From positions 1 to 33,555 of the forward strand of contig JAAOZP010000018.1 in assembly GCA_011605725.1 (NCBI GenBank): a DNA stretch of 33,555 nt. The letters are read 5' to 3'. The notes beneath the pieces were generated by a model, which was not told where the DNA came from, did not search any database, and saw only the letters and a list, made by a program, of their open reading frames with translations. Source of the stretch: Nitrososphaerota archaeon. Its GTDB lineage: Archaea; Thermoproteota; EX4484-205; JAAOZP01. Both the position numbers and the translations under genes were made by a program. Positions 1,298-9,954 of this stretch are shown here, piece by piece. Numbering within the stretch: the first letter of the stretch is position 1; each line of letters begins with the position of its first letter.

Positions 1298-3073
1298 CTA
1301 GGCGAGTCCCAGTCTTTCAAGCGTTCTTCTCGTTGGGCGTCCTTCACTATCCCATCCTCTAGCTCTGTAATACTCGTCCAGCATCTGTTCTAGCTCTACA
1401 ACCTGCCCCTTAGTCGGCCCCATGGTCAAGGGCTCGCTCAGAAGCCTCCTTGGAAGAGTATCGTCTTTCCTGCCGAAACCTTCTCTAATGTTGAAAAGTC
1501 TCTCTAGGTTCCATATTCTCTCGCCCACAAGCATGAGGTCCTCAGCAGCATACTTTACCCCAGTTGCTGCCGAAAGCATTCTAGAGTAATACTCTTCGTC
1601 AAGCCCGTATCCGGTGAACCTGCAAGCTACAAGCGTATCCATGGCTGCGTAGAGGTTCTGCTGGTATATAACTAGGCCTGCCTTGTTAACTGTTGAAAAC
1701 CTGTCTATCCTCTTCGGAACCCCCAGTATTTCCAGGGCTATCATGTAGGACCTCAGGTGGCAGCCTCCTCTGTTGCTTGTAGCATACGCTAACCCTTGTC
1801 CTTTAGCTCCACGCGGGTCGTAAGCGGGCAACTCCAAGCCTTTAACCTGCATAGCTGCATCAGGATCCCCGTATTTCTCAGAGAGCCTACGCGACCCTTC
1901 TGCAAGATCGTTCCCGAAACCCTTCCTGTAAGCTGTTTTCTCAATCAGCTCAATCATCTTATCACCATCACCCCATTTTACTTTCTCAGGCGTCAAACCT
2001 TTCTCACTAAGCTCCATCGCGCAGGCTATTGTTACGCCTGTTGAAATAGTGTCCAGCCCAAGATCGTTGCATAAATGGTTCGCCCTCCAGATCGTCTCCA
2101 GATCCCAAAGCAGGCAGCATGAGCCAAGCGCATACACAGTCTCATACTCAGGTCCCTCGCCTCTAACACTGTCTAGACGAGTGTCCCTGCCACACGCGAT
2201 CCTGCATCCGAAGCACGCCTTAGGCTTAACCAGCAGTCTCCTAGTTATCTCCTCGCCAGCAATATTCTTAGCTTCAGGTAGGAAGGTTGCTTGAAAGTTT
2301 TTAGCAGGAAGCACGCCAAGCTCGTTCATAAGGTTTACGAGGACTGCGGTTCCAAACCTGGGTAGGGCTTTACTAGTAATAGGGTTTTGGCCGAAAACCC
2401 TGTTGCATTCTCCAACTACGAAGAGGAAAGTCTCCTTGTCAGCTATTTCAACCGTCTTACTTCCGTTTGCAACGATTGCCTTCAGCCTCTTTGAACCCAT
2501 TACTGCACCCACACCACCTCTCGCAGCAGACCTATAGTAGTCGTTCATTATACCCGCTATCCTCACAAGGTTTTCCCCAGCAGGACCTATGCACGCTACC
2601 CTTGCCTCTTTCCCGAATTTTTCAATCAGCTTGTCCGTGGTTTCAAACACTCTCATGCCCCAGTATTTCTCCCCATCTAAAACCTGTATATCCTTGTCGT
2701 CCATGTATATTATAACTGGGTTTTTAGCCGCTCCCCGGATTACGAGAGTGTCGACGCCACATGCTTTGAACTTGGTTGCGAAAAACCCTCCAGAGTTCGC
2801 GTCGAACACCGTGCCTGTCAACGGGGATTTGGTTGACACTGAAAACCTGCCTGACGTCGGTGCAGCTGTTGCCGTCAGCGGGCCGACTGCGAACACAAGC
2901 ACGTTGTCCTTGCTTAAAGGATCAACCTCTGGGCCCACGTTGTCATATATTATTTTAGTTCCTACTCCTCTTCCACCGATAAACCTGAGCTTCTCATCCT
3001 CGTCCCACTCGCGAAAAGTTATTTTTGAACTAGACAGGTCTACTTCTGCGATGGAGCCCATCCAGCCAGCCAT
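1298..3073 (-). CDS. aor: Aldehyde:ferredoxin oxidoreductase (W/Mo-bis-pterin, AOR family), copy 1
   Basis: 591 aa; KSPLTG, AARGGVGAVMGSKRLK, CFGCRIAC Fe-S motif, EGPEYET, GLDTIS, VKGLELPAYDPR, RGGCH, EYYRARGWD. Confidence 0.95.
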   Translation of the reverse strand: MAGWMGSIAEVDLSSSKITFREWDEDEKLRFIGGRGVGTKIIYDNVGPEVDPLSKDNVLVFAVGPLTATAAPTSGRFSVSTKSPLTGTVFDANSGGFFATKFKACGVDTLVIRGAAKNPVIIYMDDKDIQVLDGEKYWGMRVFETTDKLIEKFGKEARVACIGPAGENLVRIAGIMNDYYRSAARGGVGAVMGSKRLKAIVANGSKTVEIADKETFLFVVGECNRVFGQNPITSKALPRFGTAVLVNLMNELGVLPAKNFQATFLPEAKNIAGEEITRRLLVKPKACFGCRIACGRDTRLDSVRGEGPEYETVYALGSCCLLWDLETIWRANHLCNDLGLDTISTGVTIACAMELSEKGLTPEKVKWGDGDKMIELIEKTAYRKGFGNDLAEGSRRLSEKYGDPDAAMQVKGLELPAYDPRGAKGQGLAYATSNRGGCHLRSYMIALEILGVPKRIDRFSTVNKAGLVIYQQNLYAAMDTLVACRFTGYGLDEEYYSRMLSAATGVKYAAEDLMLVGERIWNLERLFNIREGFGRKDDTLPRRLLSEPLTMGPTKGQVVELEQMLDEYYRARGWDSEGRPTRRTLERLGLA

Positions 3074-3094
3074 TTTAATGTCGGGAAAGCATGT

Positions 3095-3145
3095 TTCGCA
3101 GTGTTTATAAGTGTGTTGCAGATGGAACTATAAACATATAAGCGT
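3095..3145. promoter_or_regulatory. Divergent archaeal TATA boxes for aor1 (-) and moaD (+)
   Basis: TTTATAA at 3104-3110 lies ~30 nt upstream of the aor1 ATG. TATAAACATATAA at ~3129-3141 lies ~26-38 nt upstream of the moaD ATG. Confidence 0.55.
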
Positions 3146-3166
3146 AAGGGGCTGGAGGGAAACGGG

Positions 3167-3409
3167 ATGAGGATTCTGGTTAAGTATTTCGCCTCCTACA
3201 GGGAGGCTGTGGGAAAGAGCGAGGAGGAGCTGGAGCTTACACCCGGCTCAACCATTAAAGAGGTTATTAGAGAAATAGTTTCCAAACATCCTGAAGTCGA
3301 GCTTGATAAGGAGGCGATACTTATTTTAAACCAGAATATAGTCAGGGATAATCCGGAAGTTAGAGACGGCGATGTTCTAGCTGTCTTCCCGCCGCTGGGT
3401 GGCGGATGA
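3167..3409 (+). CDS. moaD: MoaD/ThiS/SAMP ubiquitin-like sulfur carrier
   Basis: 80 aa; VKYFASYRE N-terminus, DGDVLAVFPPLGGG C-terminal di-Gly; divergent from an AOR. Confidence 0.9.
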   Translation: MRILVKYFASYREAVGKSEEELELTPGSTIKEVIREIVSKHPEVELDKEAILILNQNIVRDNPEVRDGDVLAVFPPLGGG

Positions 3410-3523
3410 AATACTGGGTTTACAGGCTGTGAGGCTCTACTCGCAGAGTTACTGCAGCGCGGAATAGCTGTAGTTTTACGTAAAGTAAAGTTAAAAAGTA
3501 ACTGGAGAGAGTAAGAGAGGCAA

Positions 3524-4309
3524 ATGAAGTTCTCAGTTCAGGAGAACCTTGTCCCAGGTGCAAACTTGGAGGAGAAACTGAGGAGGCTTGAGAACTATGG
3601 CTATGACGGTATTGAGCTTTGGGGTAGACAGGAGCTCGGTGGAGCTTTAAAGAATGTTTTGGACGCATTATCTACAGCCAGGGTTAAGGTGAGCACTATT
3701 TGTTCAGGATACTCGGGAAGCCTGCTTTCTCCAAGAAGAGAAGATAGGGAAGCAGCATTGAAAGGAATAAAGGAAAGGCTTGAGTGGGCCAATAGGCTTG
3801 GTGCAGTAGGGGTTATAACTGTGCCCGTCTTCGGGGAAGCTACTGTTCCAGATCTCTCCCCCCTTTTCAAGGACAAGTTTGAACTGGAGTGGAAGCTTGC
3901 TGTTGAGGAATACAGGATTCTAGGGAAGCACGCGAGGGATGTTGGAAGCATAGTGATTGTGGAGCCGCTTAACAGGTATGAGACCCACTTCCTCAAGACG
4001 CTTTCCCAAGCCGCTTCGCTATGTGAAGAAGTCGGCTTAGACGAGGTGAGAATAATGGCTGACTATTTCCACATGAGTATTGAGGAGGCTGATATCGGGT
4101 TAAGCTTAAAGAATCATCTTGACAAGATTGCCCACGTGCATCTTGCCGACAGCAACAGGCTGACGCCTGGAAGAGGACATACTGATTTCAGTTCTTTAAG
4201 GGTTTTGAGAGAAGGAGGCTACAAGAATTATCTTACTCTAGAATGCGGAATACCCGGCGATCCTGAGGAAGAGTTAAGAAGAACCCTGGGCTTCCTTAAA
4301 TCGTTTTGA
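3524..4309 (+). CDS. Sugar phosphate isomerase/epimerase (xylose-isomerase-like TIM barrel; ketose 3-epimerase/IolO-like)
   Basis: Metal-site motifs EPLNRYET, DYFHM, HVHLADSNRLTPGRGH, TLEC. Confidence 0.88.
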   Translation: MKFSVQENLVPGANLEEKLRRLENYGYDGIELWGRQELGGALKNVLDALSTARVKVSTICSGYSGSLLSPRREDREAALKGIKERLEWANRLGAVGVITVPVFGEATVPDLSPLFKDKFELEWKLAVEEYRILGKHARDVGSIVIVEPLNRYETHFLKTLSQAASLCEEVGLDEVRIMADYFHMSIEEADIGLSLKNHLDKIAHVHLADSNRLTPGRGHTDFSSLRVLREGGYKNYLTLECGIPGDPEEELRRTLGFLKSF

Positions 4310-4347
4310 TTAAAGCAATACTGGTTAAGCGGTATGCTAGGTGAAAA

Positions 4348-5379
4348 TTGAAGCCTGTTGACCGTGTGTTCACTACGCTTAATCATGAGGAGCCTGACAT
4401 GGTTCCTTGCCTCTGGGCTGTGGCAGACGGTCTCAGACGGCTTCAAGAAGCTTTTAGAAACAGGGAGCTGCCTCAAGACCTTGTTGGAGTCGGGAGTCTT
4501 CCGGAGACTAGGGTTGTGGAACAATGTTCTGAATACAGGCTTTTAGAATCGGTTTTCGGAGACGTGCACCGTATCTCTTATAAAGTGGATTACGGTTACA
4601 GGGAGTTGGTTAAGCCAGCTGTCTCTAAACCAGAGGATCTTGATAGGCTTGAAGAGTTGAAGCTCGAGTTATCCAGGGAACATGTTAAGAGGATTAGGGA
4701 GAATGTTGAGAGAAACAGCGACCGCTTCACCTTCATAAGTCACGAGAGTCCTTTCGGCTTCGCGGCATACTCTTTAAGGGGTTTCAAACGGTTTCTTACA
4801 GACATGGTCGTGAACCCGGGTTTCGCCAAAAAGATTCTCAGCTTCGGAGTTAAGAGGCTCATGGAAATGTCGAGGCAAATAATAGAGGAAACTGGTGTTA
4901 ACGCTGTCTGGGTTTCAGGCGACTTGGGGGATAGTAACGGCCCATTCGTGTCGCCGAGGCTCTACAGTGAAATTCTTGAACCTTTTGACCGTGAGCTTTG
5001 CAGGACATACCATAGGCTGGGAGCCTACGTTTTCCTCCATAGCCATGGTAACTTAAACCTCATTCTCGACAGGATTGTGAACGCAGGGTTCGACGGCTTA
5101 AATCCTTTGGATGAGGCTGAAAACATGGTTCTCGCTTCTGTGAAAGAAAGATACGGGGGCAAGGTGACTCTGATACCTCAACCATCCACTTATAAATTGG
5201 AAAAGATGCCTAGAAACCTGATAGAGGAATATGTTGCAAGCCAGCTTCACGCCGGGGCTCATGATGGTGGGTTCATTTATTACGGTGTCATCGTTAACAT
5301 GCTTCTTGAAAATGCTGACGAGTATGTAAAGGCGTTTTTAAAATTGAGGAGTTACCCGTTGCAGTGTTGCAGGCGTTAG
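4348..5379 (+). CDS. Uroporphyrinogen decarboxylase/MtaA-like superfamily protein
   Basis: N-terminal 'RVFTTLNHEEPDMVP', RGFKRFLTDM, GDLGDSNGPFVSP, FLHSHGNL, GFDGLNPL; lacks the HemE RQAGR motif. Confidence 0.8.
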   Translation: MKPVDRVFTTLNHEEPDMVPCLWAVADGLRRLQEAFRNRELPQDLVGVGSLPETRVVEQCSEYRLLESVFGDVHRISYKVDYGYRELVKPAVSKPEDLDRLEELKLELSREHVKRIRENVERNSDRFTFISHESPFGFAAYSLRGFKRFLTDMVVNPGFAKKILSFGVKRLMEMSRQIIEETGVNAVWVSGDLGDSNGPFVSPRLYSEILEPFDRELCRTYHRLGAYVFLHSHGNLNLILDRIVNAGFDGLNPLDEAENMVLASVKERYGGKVTLIPQPSTYKLEKMPRNLIEEYVASQLHAGAHDGGFIYYGVIVNMLLENADEYVKAFLKLRSYPLQCCRR

Positions 5380-5498
5380 CCGTATGCGCATTATGCTTAC
5401 TGATCAAAAGCCCAGCCTTAGCCTGCCTTAAAATCTTTAAGCATTTTTCAAAGCAAAAGGCTTAAAAGATTATTGAGGCTTTTTAAAACGACGTCTTC

Positions 5499-6077
5499 AT
5501 GAGCATGGTTGAGAAAAAGATAGTTTACTTCAACACGCCTGGGAGAAACAATACCGAGACTGTGCTAGCTTTAGCGAGGAGAAGGGCTGAAGAGCTCGGC
5601 ATAAGAAGCATTGTCGTCGCATCTACAACCGGGGAAACTGGTGTTAAGGCTTCCCAGATGTTTAAAGGCTTCAACCTGGTTGTTGTAACTCATCATACTG
5701 GTTTCAAAGAACCTGGTAAACAGGAGTTAACGGAGGAGAACCGCAGGATAATAGAGGCGAACGGGGCGAAGGTTTACACTGGGACTCATGTCTTCATGAA
5801 TGTTGAAAGGGCGATAAGAAGCAAGTTTGACACGGCCTATCCTGCTGAGATAATGGCTCAGACGTTAAGGCTTTTCTGCGAGGGCATGAAGGTGGCTGTC
5901 GAGATCGTAGCCATGGCTGCGGACGCTGGTCTAATACCTGTAGACAGGGATGTGGTGAGCATAGCTGGAACAGGTAGAGGCGCCGACACCGCTATTATTG
6001 TCCAGCCCGCTAACTCTTCTAGAATATTCGATATGGTTATTAAAGAGATTATTGCTAAGCCTCTGAGCAGAGTATGA
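5499..6077 (+). CDS. MTH1675/COG1751-family protein (pyruvate kinase C-terminal alpha/beta-like domain)
   Basis: IVYFNTPGRNNT, IVVASTTGETG, VTHHTGF, EGMKVAVEIVAMAADAG, GTGRGADTA. Confidence 0.88.
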   Translation: MSMVEKKIVYFNTPGRNNTETVLALARRRAEELGIRSIVVASTTGETGVKASQMFKGFNLVVVTHHTGFKEPGKQELTEENRRIIEANGAKVYTGTHVFMNVERAIRSKFDTAYPAEIMAQTLRLFCEGMKVAVEIVAMAADAGLIPVDRDVVSIAGTGRGADTAIIVQPANSSRIFDMVIKEIIAKPLSRV

Positions 6078-6141
6078 AGGGTAGATGGACAGATGTTTGA
6101 ACTGACACTTATGGTGAGTAGGCGTATGGAGGCGTAGCGTC

Positions 6142-6915
6142 TTGTTTGCCCAAATAGGGAAAGGACTTAGGTTAAGCAGGATTTTCTCTGGAGACGGGAA
6201 AACACTGATCATAAGTCTGGATGCTGCTTTCACGAGAGGACATGTTGAAAACGTGTTGGAAACGCGAAGCGTATTGACTAGTGTTTTAAAGTCTAATCCT
6301 GACGCTGTCCTACTTACCAGGGGCCAGGTTGTTAGGCTTGAAAGTCTTATTGGAGGCAGGGGACCCTCCATCATCTTAAGATCCGACTTCACGAATATTG
6401 TGGGGGGTTATACAGTATTGCCGCGTAAAAAACTCGAACACGTTAAGCTAGCTAGCCCTAGGGAGGCGTTGACCCTGGGTGTTGAAGGCGTTGCTGCTTA
6501 TCTTCTCGTGGGAGACGAGGATGCGGAGGCTGGAAGTATTAGAATTGTTTCAACACTTGTCTCTGGCTGCAGAAGACTCGGGCTTCCACTGCTCGTGGAG
6601 TCGATGGCAATAGGTGAACGGGTCACTCGGGCTAACCGTTTAGACTGTTTAAAGCTTGCTGTCAGGATGGCTGTTGAAGCGGGTGCCGATATAGTTGCAG
6701 CACCGTATGTTGGGGACGAGAAGTCCATGCGCGCAATCGTTGAAGTGGCTGGTGAAACCCCGGTTGTTGCTGTTGACGACCCCGAGATCCCCCTCTCGAA
6801 GCTTAGGGGTGCTCTATCGTCAGGATGCACCGGTCTCCTCTTAAGGGAAAGACTTGCCTCGGGCGGCGTGGAGGAAACCGTTGCGGAGGCCAGGCTTCTT
6901 GTCCACGGGTGTTAA
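6142..6915 (+). CDS. DhnA/class IA aldolase-like protein, predicted catalytically inactive
   Basis: Collinear paralog of the next gene, with GADIVAAPY in place of GADxxKxPY and DAA in place of DHG. GGAGG RBS at 6128-6132 precedes the TTG start. Confidence 0.8.
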   Translation: MFAQIGKGLRLSRIFSGDGKTLIISLDAAFTRGHVENVLETRSVLTSVLKSNPDAVLLTRGQVVRLESLIGGRGPSIILRSDFTNIVGGYTVLPRKKLEHVKLASPREALTLGVEGVAAYLLVGDEDAEAGSIRIVSTLVSGCRRLGLPLLVESMAIGERVTRANRLDCLKLAVRMAVEAGADIVAAPYVGDEKSMRAIVEVAGETPVVAVDDPEIPLSKLRGALSSGCTGLLLRERLASGGVEETVAEARLLVHGC

Positions 6916-6917
6916 GG

Positions 6918-8153
6918 ATGCGGACTGGAAAGAAGCTTAGGCTGAAAAGAATATTCGGCGGAGACGGGAGAGCTGTGGTTGTTGCTGCTGACCATGGGCT
7001 CATGCTTGGGCCGATAAGGGGAGTTGTCAACCTGAGGGAAACACTGACCAGGGTTATTCAAGGCGGTCCAGACGCTATTCTTCTAACCCCTGGGCAAGCA
7101 TCTAGCCTGATTGATCTTTTCTACGGGAGGGATGCGCCGGCACTTCTAGTTAGGGCTGATTGGACGAACGCTTTTAGGGATAAGACGTATACTCTTCCAG
7201 CCAGAGTTGTACGCGACGTGAACACGGTGAGAGTCGAGGATGCTTCAGCCTTAGGTGCCTCCGGAATAGTAGTGTATCTTTTCATGGGTTTAGGCGATGA
7301 GGATGAGGAGGCTAGAAACATTGAAACAGTATCAAGGTTTTCACGCGAATGCGAGAAACAAGGAATGCCCCTTATTGTCGAGCCTCTCCCAATGGGTGAA
7401 CGGGTGACGAAGGCAAACTATGTTGACCTGGTTGCTCTTTCAGTAAGGATTGCTGCAGAGCTTGGTGCAGATGCGCTTAAAGTCCCGTACACTGGCGACC
7501 CATACACTTTTGAAAAGATTGTAAAGGCTACTGACGGAATACCTGTGTTAGCCTTAGGCGGATACAGTGGAGTCACTGTGAGAGACTCGCTGGAGGTTGT
7601 TGAGGAGGTGATGCAGGCAGGTGGTTCCGGAATCGTCTACGGAAGGAATATAGTGCAGGCCCAGGATCCTGGAGAGATGGTGAGGCTCGTCAAGGCTGTG
7701 GTGCATGAGGGTAGAAGCGTCTTGGAAGTAGTGGGAGCCTCTAAGAAGGGGAGGATTTCCCTTACTGTGGATCCGGCTGCCTGCGTAGGCTGCAACCTGT
7801 GTGCCGCTGTCTGCAGCCTCTACCATGATGGAAAAATAAATATTGGGCGTGCGAGGCTCAGGATTATCCAGGAATGGCCGAGTGGAGCCAAACCGGTCAT
7901 ATGTGTTCAATGCGGAAAATGCATATCCGTCTGTCCAGCTGGAGCCTTAAAATGGGGCTTAAAGGGTAATGTTGAGCTTGTGGACGGCCTCTGCACGTCA
8001 TGCATGGCTTGCGTGGAAACCTGTCCTCAGAAGGTAATTAGGTTCGACGAGGAGAGGAGCGTTCCTCTTGTTTGCGACCTTTGCGGCGGAGTTCCACAGT
8101 GTTCAGAATGGTGTGGCACAGCAGCCATAAGGGTTGTTGAAAAAGGTGTTTGA
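6918..8153 (+). CDS. DhnA/class IA aldolase fused to a C-terminal 4x[4Fe-4S] ferredoxin domain
   Basis: Likely start is ATG 6918, 2 nt after the upstream stop (track start 6825 overlaps that gene). Motifs ADHG, GADALKVPY, LGG, YGRN, then 16 Cys in four groups from ~7780 to 8115. Confidence 0.88.
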   Translation: MRTGKKLRLKRIFGGDGRAVVVAADHGLMLGPIRGVVNLRETLTRVIQGGPDAILLTPGQASSLIDLFYGRDAPALLVRADWTNAFRDKTYTLPARVVRDVNTVRVEDASALGASGIVVYLFMGLGDEDEEARNIETVSRFSRECEKQGMPLIVEPLPMGERVTKANYVDLVALSVRIAAELGADALKVPYTGDPYTFEKIVKATDGIPVLALGGYSGVTVRDSLEVVEEVMQAGGSGIVYGRNIVQAQDPGEMVRLVKAVVHEGRSVLEVVGASKKGRISLTVDPAACVGCNLCAAVCSLYHDGKINIGRARLRIIQEWPSGAKPVICVQCGKCISVCPAGALKWGLKGNVELVDGLCTSCMACVETCPQKVIRFDEERSVPLVCDLCGGVPQCSEWCGTAAIRVVEKGV

Positions 8154-8154
8154 A

Positions 8155-9954
8155 ATGAAGGGTGGCTATGCAGGCAGGGTTCTAAGCTTCGACCTCTCCT
8201 CAAACAAGCCTAGGGTTGAGAATCTTGATGAGAAAGAGGCTTTCCTCCTACTTGGTGGAAAAGGTCTTGGAGCCCTCCATCTCTACAGGAGCCTAAGGGG
8301 CAAGGAGGATCCGTTTTCTCCTGAAAACCCAATCATAGTTTCGACCGGCCCGTTGACTGGAACAATTGCTCCAACAGGCACTAAGTTCAGCGTCGTGACT
8401 AAAAGCCCTCAGACCGGTGTTTTTCTAGATTCAAACTGCGGCGGAATGTTCGGGGTGCAGCTTAAGAGAGCCGGCTACGACATGCTTATCGTCAAAGGAG
8501 CCGCTGAAGAGCCTTCTATGCTAATAGTTGATGAAAATGGTGCTGAGCTTAGGCCTTGCAAACAATGGGGTAGGACTACGTTTGAAACCATCAGGGAGCT
8601 TAAGAAAGAGTTTCCAGACTACAGCTTTCTTATAGTTGGGCCAGCTGGTGAAAGGCTTGCTCCAATAGCGGGGCTGTTGACGGATGACGCGAGGTCCGCT
8701 GGCCGCGGAGGCTCCGGGGCAGTAATGGGCTCTAAAAGGCTGAAGGCAATCGTGGCAGGTGGCGGGAGACCAATAGAGGTTTATGATGTCGAAGGGATGA
8801 AAAGGGCCGCCTGGGTTGTTAGAAGGATGCTTAGGCTGCACGAGGTTACTGCGAGAAGCCTTCCTAGACATGGGACGGTGAACATAATAGAGGCTGTTAA
8901 CGAGATGGGTGCTCTTCCCACGAGAAACTTTCAGAAAGGAAGGTTTGAAGATGCAAGCGAGCTTTCAGGCGAAAAATGGAGGTCAAGCCTTTGGAAGACC
9001 GATAAGGGCTGCTATGGCTGCACTATAAGATGTGGAAAAATCGCTGTCTTGAACGACACGTGGGTAGACGGACCGGACTACGAGACCATATGGGCATTCG
9101 GCCCCAATTGTGGAGTCAAGGATGCTAGGGCGATAGCCATGGCTAACTATTTTTGCGACGCCTACGGCTTAGACACGATAAGCACGGGCGTAACCATAAG
9201 CTTCCTAATGGAACTCTATGAGAAAGGGTTCATCCAGGACCTGGACGGGTTAAAGCCTACTTGGGGGGACGACGAGGTCTTTCTCAGACTCGTGGAGAAG
9301 GCTTGCAAGGGCGAGGGTTGTGGAAGAATGATTGAGCAGGGTGTAGCTAGGGTAAGTAGAAAGTTCCCTGGCAGCGAGAGCTTCGCGATGCATGTTAAGG
9401 GGCTGGAGATGCCTGCTTACGAGCCTAGGGCTGCTAAAGGAATGGGTCTTGGCTACGCAACTAGTGACCGGGGAGCATGCCATCTTAGAGGATACACTGC
9501 TGGTCAGGAGCTGCTTGGATATGGTGGAGGTGTAGACCCGTACACTGTCGAGGGCAAGGCTAAGCTAGTAATGGATAGGCAGGATGAGAAGGCTGTGATA
9601 GACTCTTCAGGCCTATGCTTCTTCGCGTTCTACGCTATAACGCTTAAAGAGCTTCACCGCATGGTTGTTGCCTGCACTGGACAGCCATATAAAGACTGGT
9701 ATGAATTCATGAGGATAGGGGAAAGAATCTATAATCTGACGAGGCTTTTCAACGTGAGAGAAGGATTGACGAGGAAGGATGACACTCTGCCCGGCAGATT
9801 CTTAAACGAGCCCATGGCGGAAGGACCTGCGAAGGGGCAGGTGGTTGAGCTTGAACAAATGCTCTCCGAATACTATAGGCTTAGAGGCTGGAACGAGAAT
9901 GGTGAACCTATGAAGGAGACTATTGAAAGACTGGAGTTAAGCGAGCTACTGTGA
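8155..9954 (+). CDS. aor: Aldehyde:ferredoxin oxidoreductase (AOR family), copy 2
   Basis: ATG 8155 is 1 nt after the upstream stop, with AGGTG RBS at 8144-8148. Motifs KSPQTG, AGRGGSGAVMGSKRLK, CYGCTIRC, DGPDYET, GLDTIS, RGACH, EYYRLRGWN. Confidence 0.95.
   Translation: MKGGYAGRVLSFDLSSNKPRVENLDEKEAFLLLGGKGLGALHLYRSLRGKEDPFSPENPIIVSTGPLTGTIAPTGTKFSVVTKSPQTGVFLDSNCGGMFGVQLKRAGYDMLIVKGAAEEPSMLIVDENGAELRPCKQWGRTTFETIRELKKEFPDYSFLIVGPAGERLAPIAGLLTDDARSAGRGGSGAVMGSKRLKAIVAGGGRPIEVYDVEGMKRAAWVVRRMLRLHEVTARSLPRHGTVNIIEAVNEMGALPTRNFQKGRFEDASELSGEKWRSSLWKTDKGCYGCTIRCGKIAVLNDTWVDGPDYETIWAFGPNCGVKDARAIAMANYFCDAYGLDTISTGVTISFLMELYEKGFIQDLDGLKPTWGDDEVFLRLVEKACKGEGCGRMIEQGVARVSRKFPGSESFAMHVKGLEMPAYEPRAAKGMGLGYATSDRGACHLRGYTAGQELLGYGGGVDPYTVEGKAKLVMDRQDEKAVIDSSGLCFFAFYAITLKELHRMVVACTGQPYKDWYEFMRIGERIYNLTRLFNVREGLTRKDDTLPGRFLNEPMAEGPAKGQVVELEQMLSEYYRLRGWNENGEPMKETIERLELSELL

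Follow-up and report, generated by a model that had tools for sequence, protein, structure and literature searches.

A lysine-less paralog of DhnA-type aldolases as the probable non-catalytic partner subunit of an archaeal aldolase-ferredoxin-AOR complex

The locus and its three-gene module

In the window, that is, the whole stretch of 33,555 nucleotides analysed here (contig JAAOZP010000018.1, from a Nitrososphaerota archaeon), a gene for an aldolase-like protein devoid of the Schiff-base lysine is followed by a gene whose product joins a Lys-bearing aldolase domain to a polyferredoxin, and then by a gene of the aldehyde:ferredoxin oxidoreductase (AOR) family. The features discussed below are the following:

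6128..6132, plus strand: Shine-Dalgarno-like GGAGG, as read from the sequence, 9 nt upstream of the TTG start
6142..6915, plus strand: Lys-less paralog of the DhnA-type aldolases (pseudo-aldolase), an uninterrupted open reading frame of 257 aa
6220..6228, plus strand: D27-A28-A29 (GAT GCT GCT), in place of Asp-His-Gly after beta-1
6568..6705, plus strand: best-conserved block, residues 143-188 (end of alpha-4, beta-5, GERVT loop, alpha-5 and beta-6)
6697..6699, plus strand: Ala186 (GCA) at the Schiff-base Lys position, opposite Lys188 of the twin (AAA 7479-7481)
6775..6780, plus strand: D212-D213 (GAC GAC), in place of the phosphate-binding Gly-Gly after beta-7
6844..6852, plus strand: R235-E236-R237 (AGG GAA AGA), in place of Gly-Arg-Asn after beta-8, the Gly being deleted and the Asn replaced by Glu
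6918..8153, plus strand: fusion of an aldolase domain that has the Lys with a four-cluster polyferredoxin of the type seen in AOR small subunits, starting with ATG at 6918
8134..9954, plus strand: AOR-family gene, third of the module (AFOR_N 4.7e-64, AFOR_C 5e-136)

The TTG at 6142 is the first start codon past an in-frame TGA (6115-6117); the start of the fused gene lies 2 nt beyond the stop codon of the Lys-less paralog, and the AOR gene may start either at TTG 8134 or at ATG 8155. Most of the congeneric orthologs of the Lys-less paralog (L027-L031) also begin with TTG, while its partner begins with ATG in five of six cases; the TTG start might lower the translation of the paralog relative to that of the partner.

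The 257-aa protein scores 37.8 bits against the Pfam family PF01791, above the cut-off of 23.8, and is matched by phmmer to 2qjg_A (5.6e-19), but it reaches none of the NCBIfam equivalog cut-offs for ADH synthase, archaeal fructose-bisphosphate aldolase (FBPA) and LsrF (111 bits vs 241, 96 vs 299, 71 vs 430 and 63 vs 297). Judged by its sequence, it is a homologue of the DhnA-type class I aldolases and not a functional member of the group, while in the databases the family goes under the names 'hypothetical protein' or 'class I fructose-bisphosphate aldolase'. The fused twin scores 120.3 bits against PF01791, and it too remains under every NCBIfam equivalog cut-off.

The polyferredoxin domain of the fusion matches the Fe-S subunits of the AOR family (8c0z_C, 6.9e-20; 6x6u_B, 3.2e-20), and the AOR gene thus adjoins a four-cluster ferredoxin homologous to AorA and to the small subunit of WOR5; the module's third conserved member codes for the Lys-less aldolase paralog rather than for AorC, an FAD protein. 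The original prediction spoke of a catalytically stripped aldolase paired with its active twin. The second half of this statement stands in part: the aldolase domain of the fusion retains the Lys, DHG, GG and GRN, but a Leu occupies the position of Tyr146 of the T. tenax FBPA and of the catalytic Tyr of MJ0400 (EPLPMG, 7380-7397, vs MMYPRG in MJ0400), and the word 'active' is therefore an assumption. A Met is found at the position of T. tenax Arg148. The motif E-x-[LIV]-P-x-G-[EP]-[RK]-V-T is common to all proteins of the fused type, whose chemistry may differ from that of FBP aldolase; an aldolase activity of the twin is assumed in what follows.

Other genes surround the module. A second, divergent AOR gene, 44% identical, lies on the minus strand (1298-3073), and next along the window comes a ThiS/MoaD-like gene whose product ends in GG (3167-3409); there follow genes for a xylose-isomerase-like TIM barrel (3524-4309), a URO-D/MtaA-like protein (4348-5379) and a PK_C-like protein of 192 aa (5499-6077). 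The gene order from 1298 to 6077 is kept in the five congeneric genomes with long enough contigs and not outside the genus; indeed, beyond the three-gene module no gene is conserved between lineages. In one congeneric genome (G008, L031:7592-8582) the URO-D-like gene located upstream of the module is split into two open reading frames of 154 and 130 aa, by a frameshift or because the gene is broken.

Loss of the active site and predicted retention of the fold

By BLASTP, the product of 6142-6915 and that of the next gene are 40% identical over 212 residues (E 5e-48), the alignment covering the N-terminal 213 residues of the latter, i.e., its aldolase domain. The homology of the two genes, for which the original prediction had quoted four pairs of peptides, all of them present, is thus borne out, and so are its readings of the active site: the Schiff-base Lys is replaced by Ala at precisely the codons named, DHG has become DAA where the twin has kept DHG, and the phosphate-binding Gly-Gly and GRN are DD and RER. 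The frame was also correctly described as unbroken and endowed with a ribosome-binding site of its own, all 257 codons being open behind the GGAGG. A deletion of five residues after beta-7 accompanies these substitutions.

The meaning of the lost residues can be read from solved relatives. The Schiff-base Lys is located on beta-6 (Lys177 in the T. tenax FBPA, Lys203 in LsrF), the Asp of DHG is catalytic, its His is hydrogen-bonded to the phosphate in LsrF, and Gly-Gly and Gly-Arg make up a main-chain phosphate site (PMC4881948, PMC2728841). In sequence alignments Ala186 falls opposite the Schiff-base Lys of both MJ0400 and the T. tenax FBPA; of the hallmarks of a DhnA-type aldolase, the Lys, the DHG motif and the Gly-Gly and Gly-Arg-Asn loops are all missing from the 257-aa protein. 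The Asp of DHG is kept within the genus (D27, in the Brockarchaeota family) and not across the Lys-less clade as a whole.

Despite the loss of the catalytic residues, the fold is predicted to be intact: the AlphaFold2 model obtained with the family alignment (pLDDT 85.4, pTM 0.87) has the eight strands of a TIM barrel, with Ala186 on beta-6, and in the Foldseek ranking the ADH synthase MJ0400 (2QJG) comes first with a TM score of 0.83, followed by the T. tenax FBPA and LsrF. Among 62 diverse members of the Lys-less clade, neither Lys nor Arg is ever found at column 186, which is occupied by Ala in 35 and, in the others, by Ile, Val or one of a few further residues, none of them basic. A compensating Lys, the finding that would have spoken against the original prediction, was sought in the same 62 members and no conserved one emerged: the column richest in Lys, in the N-terminal helix, reaches 58%. 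As to K102, which belongs to the genus-specific LEHVKL in the region of the beta-3/alpha-3 loop, its candidacy as a replacement was rejected at the level of sequence, since P0022 has a Met in its place and other modules a Phe or a Val.

The columns at least 85% identical in the 62 members consist of Gly, Pro, Ala or Leu, plus R10, D54 and E179, and contain no clade-specific polar constellation, D54 and E179 being invariant and R10 largely kept in the Lys-bearing aldolases too. This pattern of conservation, taken from the alignment, argues against both a relocated Schiff-base Lys and a new conserved chemistry, and it bears directly on the idea that the paralog is a neofunctionalised enzyme, carrying out on a substrate of the pathway a step independent of a Schiff base, such as an isomerisation or epimerisation feeding the aldolase. 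The intact barrel and the purifying selection described below would suit such an enzyme, as would the GERVT loop, kept at the catalytic face in both paralogs, the retention of D27 in the Brockarchaeota family and the presence of sugar-type genes (the xylose-isomerase-like barrel and the PK_C-like gene) in the genus-specific operon; yet the conserved polar residues are those shared with Lys-bearing aldolases, the former DHG is highly variable and both phosphate loops are destroyed, so that we regard this explanation as quite unlikely.

Dead paralogs often retain the ability to bind ligands, and the barrel might accordingly be a sensor which binds a metabolite and gates the complex allosterically, all the more since the small Ala strongly conserved at the Lys position could preserve a cavity. 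This too appears improbable: the phosphate binders of LsrF, MJ0400 and the T. tenax FBPA (His, Gly-Gly and Gly-Arg) have all been lost (PMC2728841), the acidic replacements found in the genus (DD and E236) would repel phosphate, and the loops which line the pocket vary more than any other part of the protein. Measured over 13 non-redundant modules, the conservation of the former catalytic loops amounts to 0.49-0.53 in the Lys-less paralog vs 0.82-0.86 in the partner.

The part best conserved is instead the block of residues 143-188; in particular, alpha-5 has a conservation of 0.70 vs 0.63 in the fused twin, though the Lys-less paralog is far more divergent overall. In the decamer of LsrF, helices 4-6 of one subunit pack, within the ring, on helices 1a-3 and on the large beta-3/alpha-3 loop of its neighbour (PMC2728841), and this loop is almost invariant in the partner (R-x-DWTN...Y-x-LP). 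Such complementary conservation suggests that a directional contact may exist between the Lys-less paralog and the partner, the argument being built on the published description of LsrF and not on coordinates of the 257-aa protein.

Distribution, single origin and selection

A word-indexed search retrieved 21 clusters of orthologs with identities of 56-98%; between these and the canonical aldolases, at about 30%, there is a gap. The Lys is absent in all 21, its place after an invariant Ala being taken by Ala, Val, Thr or Met, and D[SA]x, DD and R[ED]R are present in every one of them. Within the genus of the window, the gene occurs in 6 of 17 genomes, and its nine-gene context never varies. 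When 401 genomes drawn from across the phylum were searched with a profile, 18 of them turned out to encode ferredoxin-fused aldolases; where the upstream DNA was present, the condition for counting a module, 21 modules could be recognised in 17 genomes, two of which have two modules each. In all 21 the order is Lys-less paralog, fusion (408-421 aa), AOR, and the first two genes overlap or are separated by at most 10 nt. The upstream paralog is 253-289 aa long (one copy is cut to 191 aa by the end of the contig), its residue at the Lys position is Ala 20 times and Val once, and it has invariably lost GG, GRN and DHG, the last of which now reads DAA, DST, SHG, TGE, DWC, DYG, ERS, SGN or something else.

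The same gene order recurs in 19 complete metagenome modules, detected by a scan with a six-sequence alignment and including those of a distant Ile/Val-type subclade, in genomes of Bathyarchaeia, and in one bacterial contig assigned to Phycisphaerae. The clade, at least 49 clusters at 50% identity, ranges over Thermoproteota, Brockarchaeota and Bathyarchaeia included; Chloroflexota account for the nearest Atlas clusters and for one fused relative. Two reading frames are interrupted in this material, by a frameshift or an assembly error: that of the fused aldolase in the Phycisphaerae contig, which is spread over two overlapping open reading frames (L052:2323-3236), and that of the AOR in a metagenome contig, split in two (L069:6513-8455).

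Co-occurrence of the Lys-less paralog with a Lys-bearing one is the rule, with three exceptions. The first is an orphan of the Ile type on a metagenome contig (L059:2698-3525), which has neither a fused aldolase nor an AOR within 4.5 kb and is flanked by thiolase/ChsH2-like genes and a phosphodiester glycosidase gene. The other two are the second modules of genomes G124 (L036:1949-3175, minus strand) and G061 (L038:3787-5016, plus strand), in which the Schiff-base Lys of the fused partner is replaced by Glu (GADFLEIPY) and its DHG by DHN, with GG and GRQ kept, and neither protein of aldolase fold has the Lys.

When 1.8 billion representatives were searched exhaustively with a profile, the best 150 matches contained about 50 Lys-less clusters (at the level of 50% identity). 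In a FastTree phylogeny, 49 of 50 Lys-less representatives lie on one side of a single branch (support 98), the remaining one, P0131, being a separate and independent loss, and the Lys-less clade sits together with the ferredoxin-fused, Lys-bearing type in a group of 69 rows (support 95); in a subset of 74 rows analysed by IQ-TREE (LG+C20), the 31 Lys-less rows of the module type all form one clade (SH-aLRT 96). The Lys has therefore been lost essentially once, and the most economical scenario is that the AOR-linked aldolase was duplicated in tandem one time and that its upstream copy then lost catalysis.

The copy so produced has been maintained. Pairwise Nei-Gojobori estimates over six congeneric genomes give a median dN/dS of 0.15 (range 0.10-0.22) for the Lys-less paralog, to be compared with 0.06 for the aldolase domain and 0.14 for the ferredoxin domain of the partner, and stop codons and frameshifts are absent from it in the 21 genome modules. 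Its divergence is about 1.45 times faster than that of the twin, and the pairwise distances of the two correlate closely (Mantel r 0.92-0.94, 0 of 2000 permutations). What had been foreseen at the outset, namely a Lys loss conserved among orthologs and a dN/dS below 1, has thus been found, and the picture of a retained, non-decaying and non-catalytic paralog has held up, the loss being ancient. With catalytic residues lost, the fold intact and purifying selection at work, the protein resembles a prozyme-type paralog in these respects, and it co-diverges with its partner.

It could be objected that a gene which has lost all of its catalytic residues and evolves faster than its twin is simply a functionless duplicate on the way to decay. 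The selection and phylogenetic-depth data exclude this explanation, to which we grant next to no probability: the dN/dS is 0.15, the reading frame is kept in every genome module, and the clade has survived in a number of archaeal classes as well as in some bacteria. A recent decay into a pseudogene was rejected on the same two grounds. The upstream gene therefore belongs to a monophyletic, selected, Lys-less clade, and this is what the present analysis contributes.

Proposed role and comparison with known systems

The Lys-less paralog is probably a non-catalytic, 'prozyme'-like subunit of an aldolase-ferredoxin-AOR complex, in which it would assemble with the aldolase domain of the fusion; the physical hetero-oligomer, its stoichiometry and its effect on the activity of the partner are the parts of this reading that we infer. 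In this reading, a folded, catalytically dead copy of the neighbouring aldolase domain arose by one ancient tandem duplication and, along with the aldolase-polyferredoxin fusion and the AOR, has since been passed on as a translationally coupled three-gene unit of fixed composition; the dead subunit would join its fused counterpart by means of the subunit contacts which hold together the rings of DhnA-type aldolases and, by stabilising, activating or spacing the catalytic subunits, would set the architecture of the whole complex.

DhnA-type aldolases form D5 decamers, composed of two stacked pentamers. The spacer put forward in the original prediction, which would limit the number of ferredoxin-AOR units carried by a hetero-ring, is a guess compatible with the subunit reading; a strictly alternating arrangement is, however, impossible in a five-membered ring, and two stacked rings, one made up of dead and the other of fused subunits, would be easier to reconcile with the D5 decamers. 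Proteins longer than 450 aa and the top 120 relatives of the fused gene (all of 275-445 aa) were examined for a natural fusion joining the Lys-less paralog with either its partner or the AOR; none was seen in either set, two weak negatives.

Some observations count against a role as partner subunit: the orphan L059, the two modules whose partners are devoid of Lys, and the absence of the catalytic Tyr from the partner itself. In L036 and L038 the partner has no Lys, and the dead paralog therefore cannot activate a Schiff-base enzyme there; this is a hint that in at least some of the complexes the aldolase fold may be structural. Carried further, the hint leads to a more speculative and rather unlikely proposal, in which the aldolase fold would have been exapted as a scaffold for a tungsten-type enzyme, a dead pentamer being stacked on the fused ring in a Janus-faced hetero-decamer with all five ferredoxin-AOR arms on one face. 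Were this true, aldehydes released by the ring would be oxidised at once, and in L036 and L038 the ring would be a pure scaffold.

The paralog might, on the other hand, be only transiently involved, as an assembly factor or chaperone for the fusion or the AOR, acting in the manner of GatZ and not as a stoichiometric subunit. The TTG start could indeed provide sub-stoichiometric expression; nevertheless, translational coupling and co-divergence fit a stable partner at least as well, and, while these data do not distinguish the two readings, we give a low probability to the transient factor and prefer the stable, non-catalytic partner subunit.

The recognition of the family as non-catalytic corrects those metabolic reconstructions in which its members are counted as FBP aldolases. 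It further provides a testable hypothesis as to which subunits make up an aldolase-ferredoxin-AOR complex, so far undescribed, of anaerobes that are abundant and uncultured, and a natural case in which to study how homo-oligomeric rings evolve into hetero-oligomers. Literature searches on aldolases combined with AOR and polyferredoxin, on Brockarchaeota and AOR, and on pseudoenzyme paralogs of aldolases returned no description of the family; the paper on the Brockarchaeota mentions AFOR only for the oxidation of formaldehyde and makes no mention of an aldolase.

Partnerships between a dead paralog and an active twin are well documented in eukaryotes; to our knowledge, they have rarely been recognised in prokaryotic operons. 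The closest structural relatives of the 257-aa protein are the T. tenax FBPA (1OJX), the ADH synthase MJ0400 of M. jannaschii (2QJG) and LsrF of E. coli (3GKF), which share its fold and are clearly homologous to it; unlike them, it lacks the Lys, the His and Gly of DHG, both phosphate loops and the catalytic Tyr. As regards function, the closest parallels are the deoxyhypusine-synthase-type and decarboxylase-type pairs of trypanosomatids, DHS (PMC3663545) and the AdoMetDC prozyme (PMC6221367), in which a dead paralog activates its partner. The likeness lies in a paralog deprived of catalytic residues (in DHS, of the catalytic Lys) and yet retained under selection, which in those systems enters a heteromer with its active or impaired counterpart; the differences are that DHS and AdoMetDC are eukaryotic, have unrelated folds and are biochemically proven, whereas the heteromer proposed here is one that we infer, and that the aldolase pair is encoded in a prokaryotic operon together with a tungsten-type oxidoreductase. 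Another precedent is offered by GatZ and KbaZ of E. coli, non-catalytic proteins encoded in the same operon as the tagatose-bisphosphate aldolases GatY and KbaY and needed for their full activity (PMC9720028); that system, however, is of class II and metal-dependent, the kinship between GatZ and GatY is not that of close paralogs, and neither a ferredoxin nor an AOR is associated with it. With AorAB(C) of Aromatoleum aromaticum (8C0Z) and WOR5 of Pyrococcus furiosus (6X6U), finally, the module shares an Fe-S subunit that matches the C-terminal domain of the fusion (E about 1e-20); unlike in those complexes, the polyferredoxin carries here an N-terminal aldolase domain, and the place of the extra subunit is taken not by AorC but by the dead aldolase.
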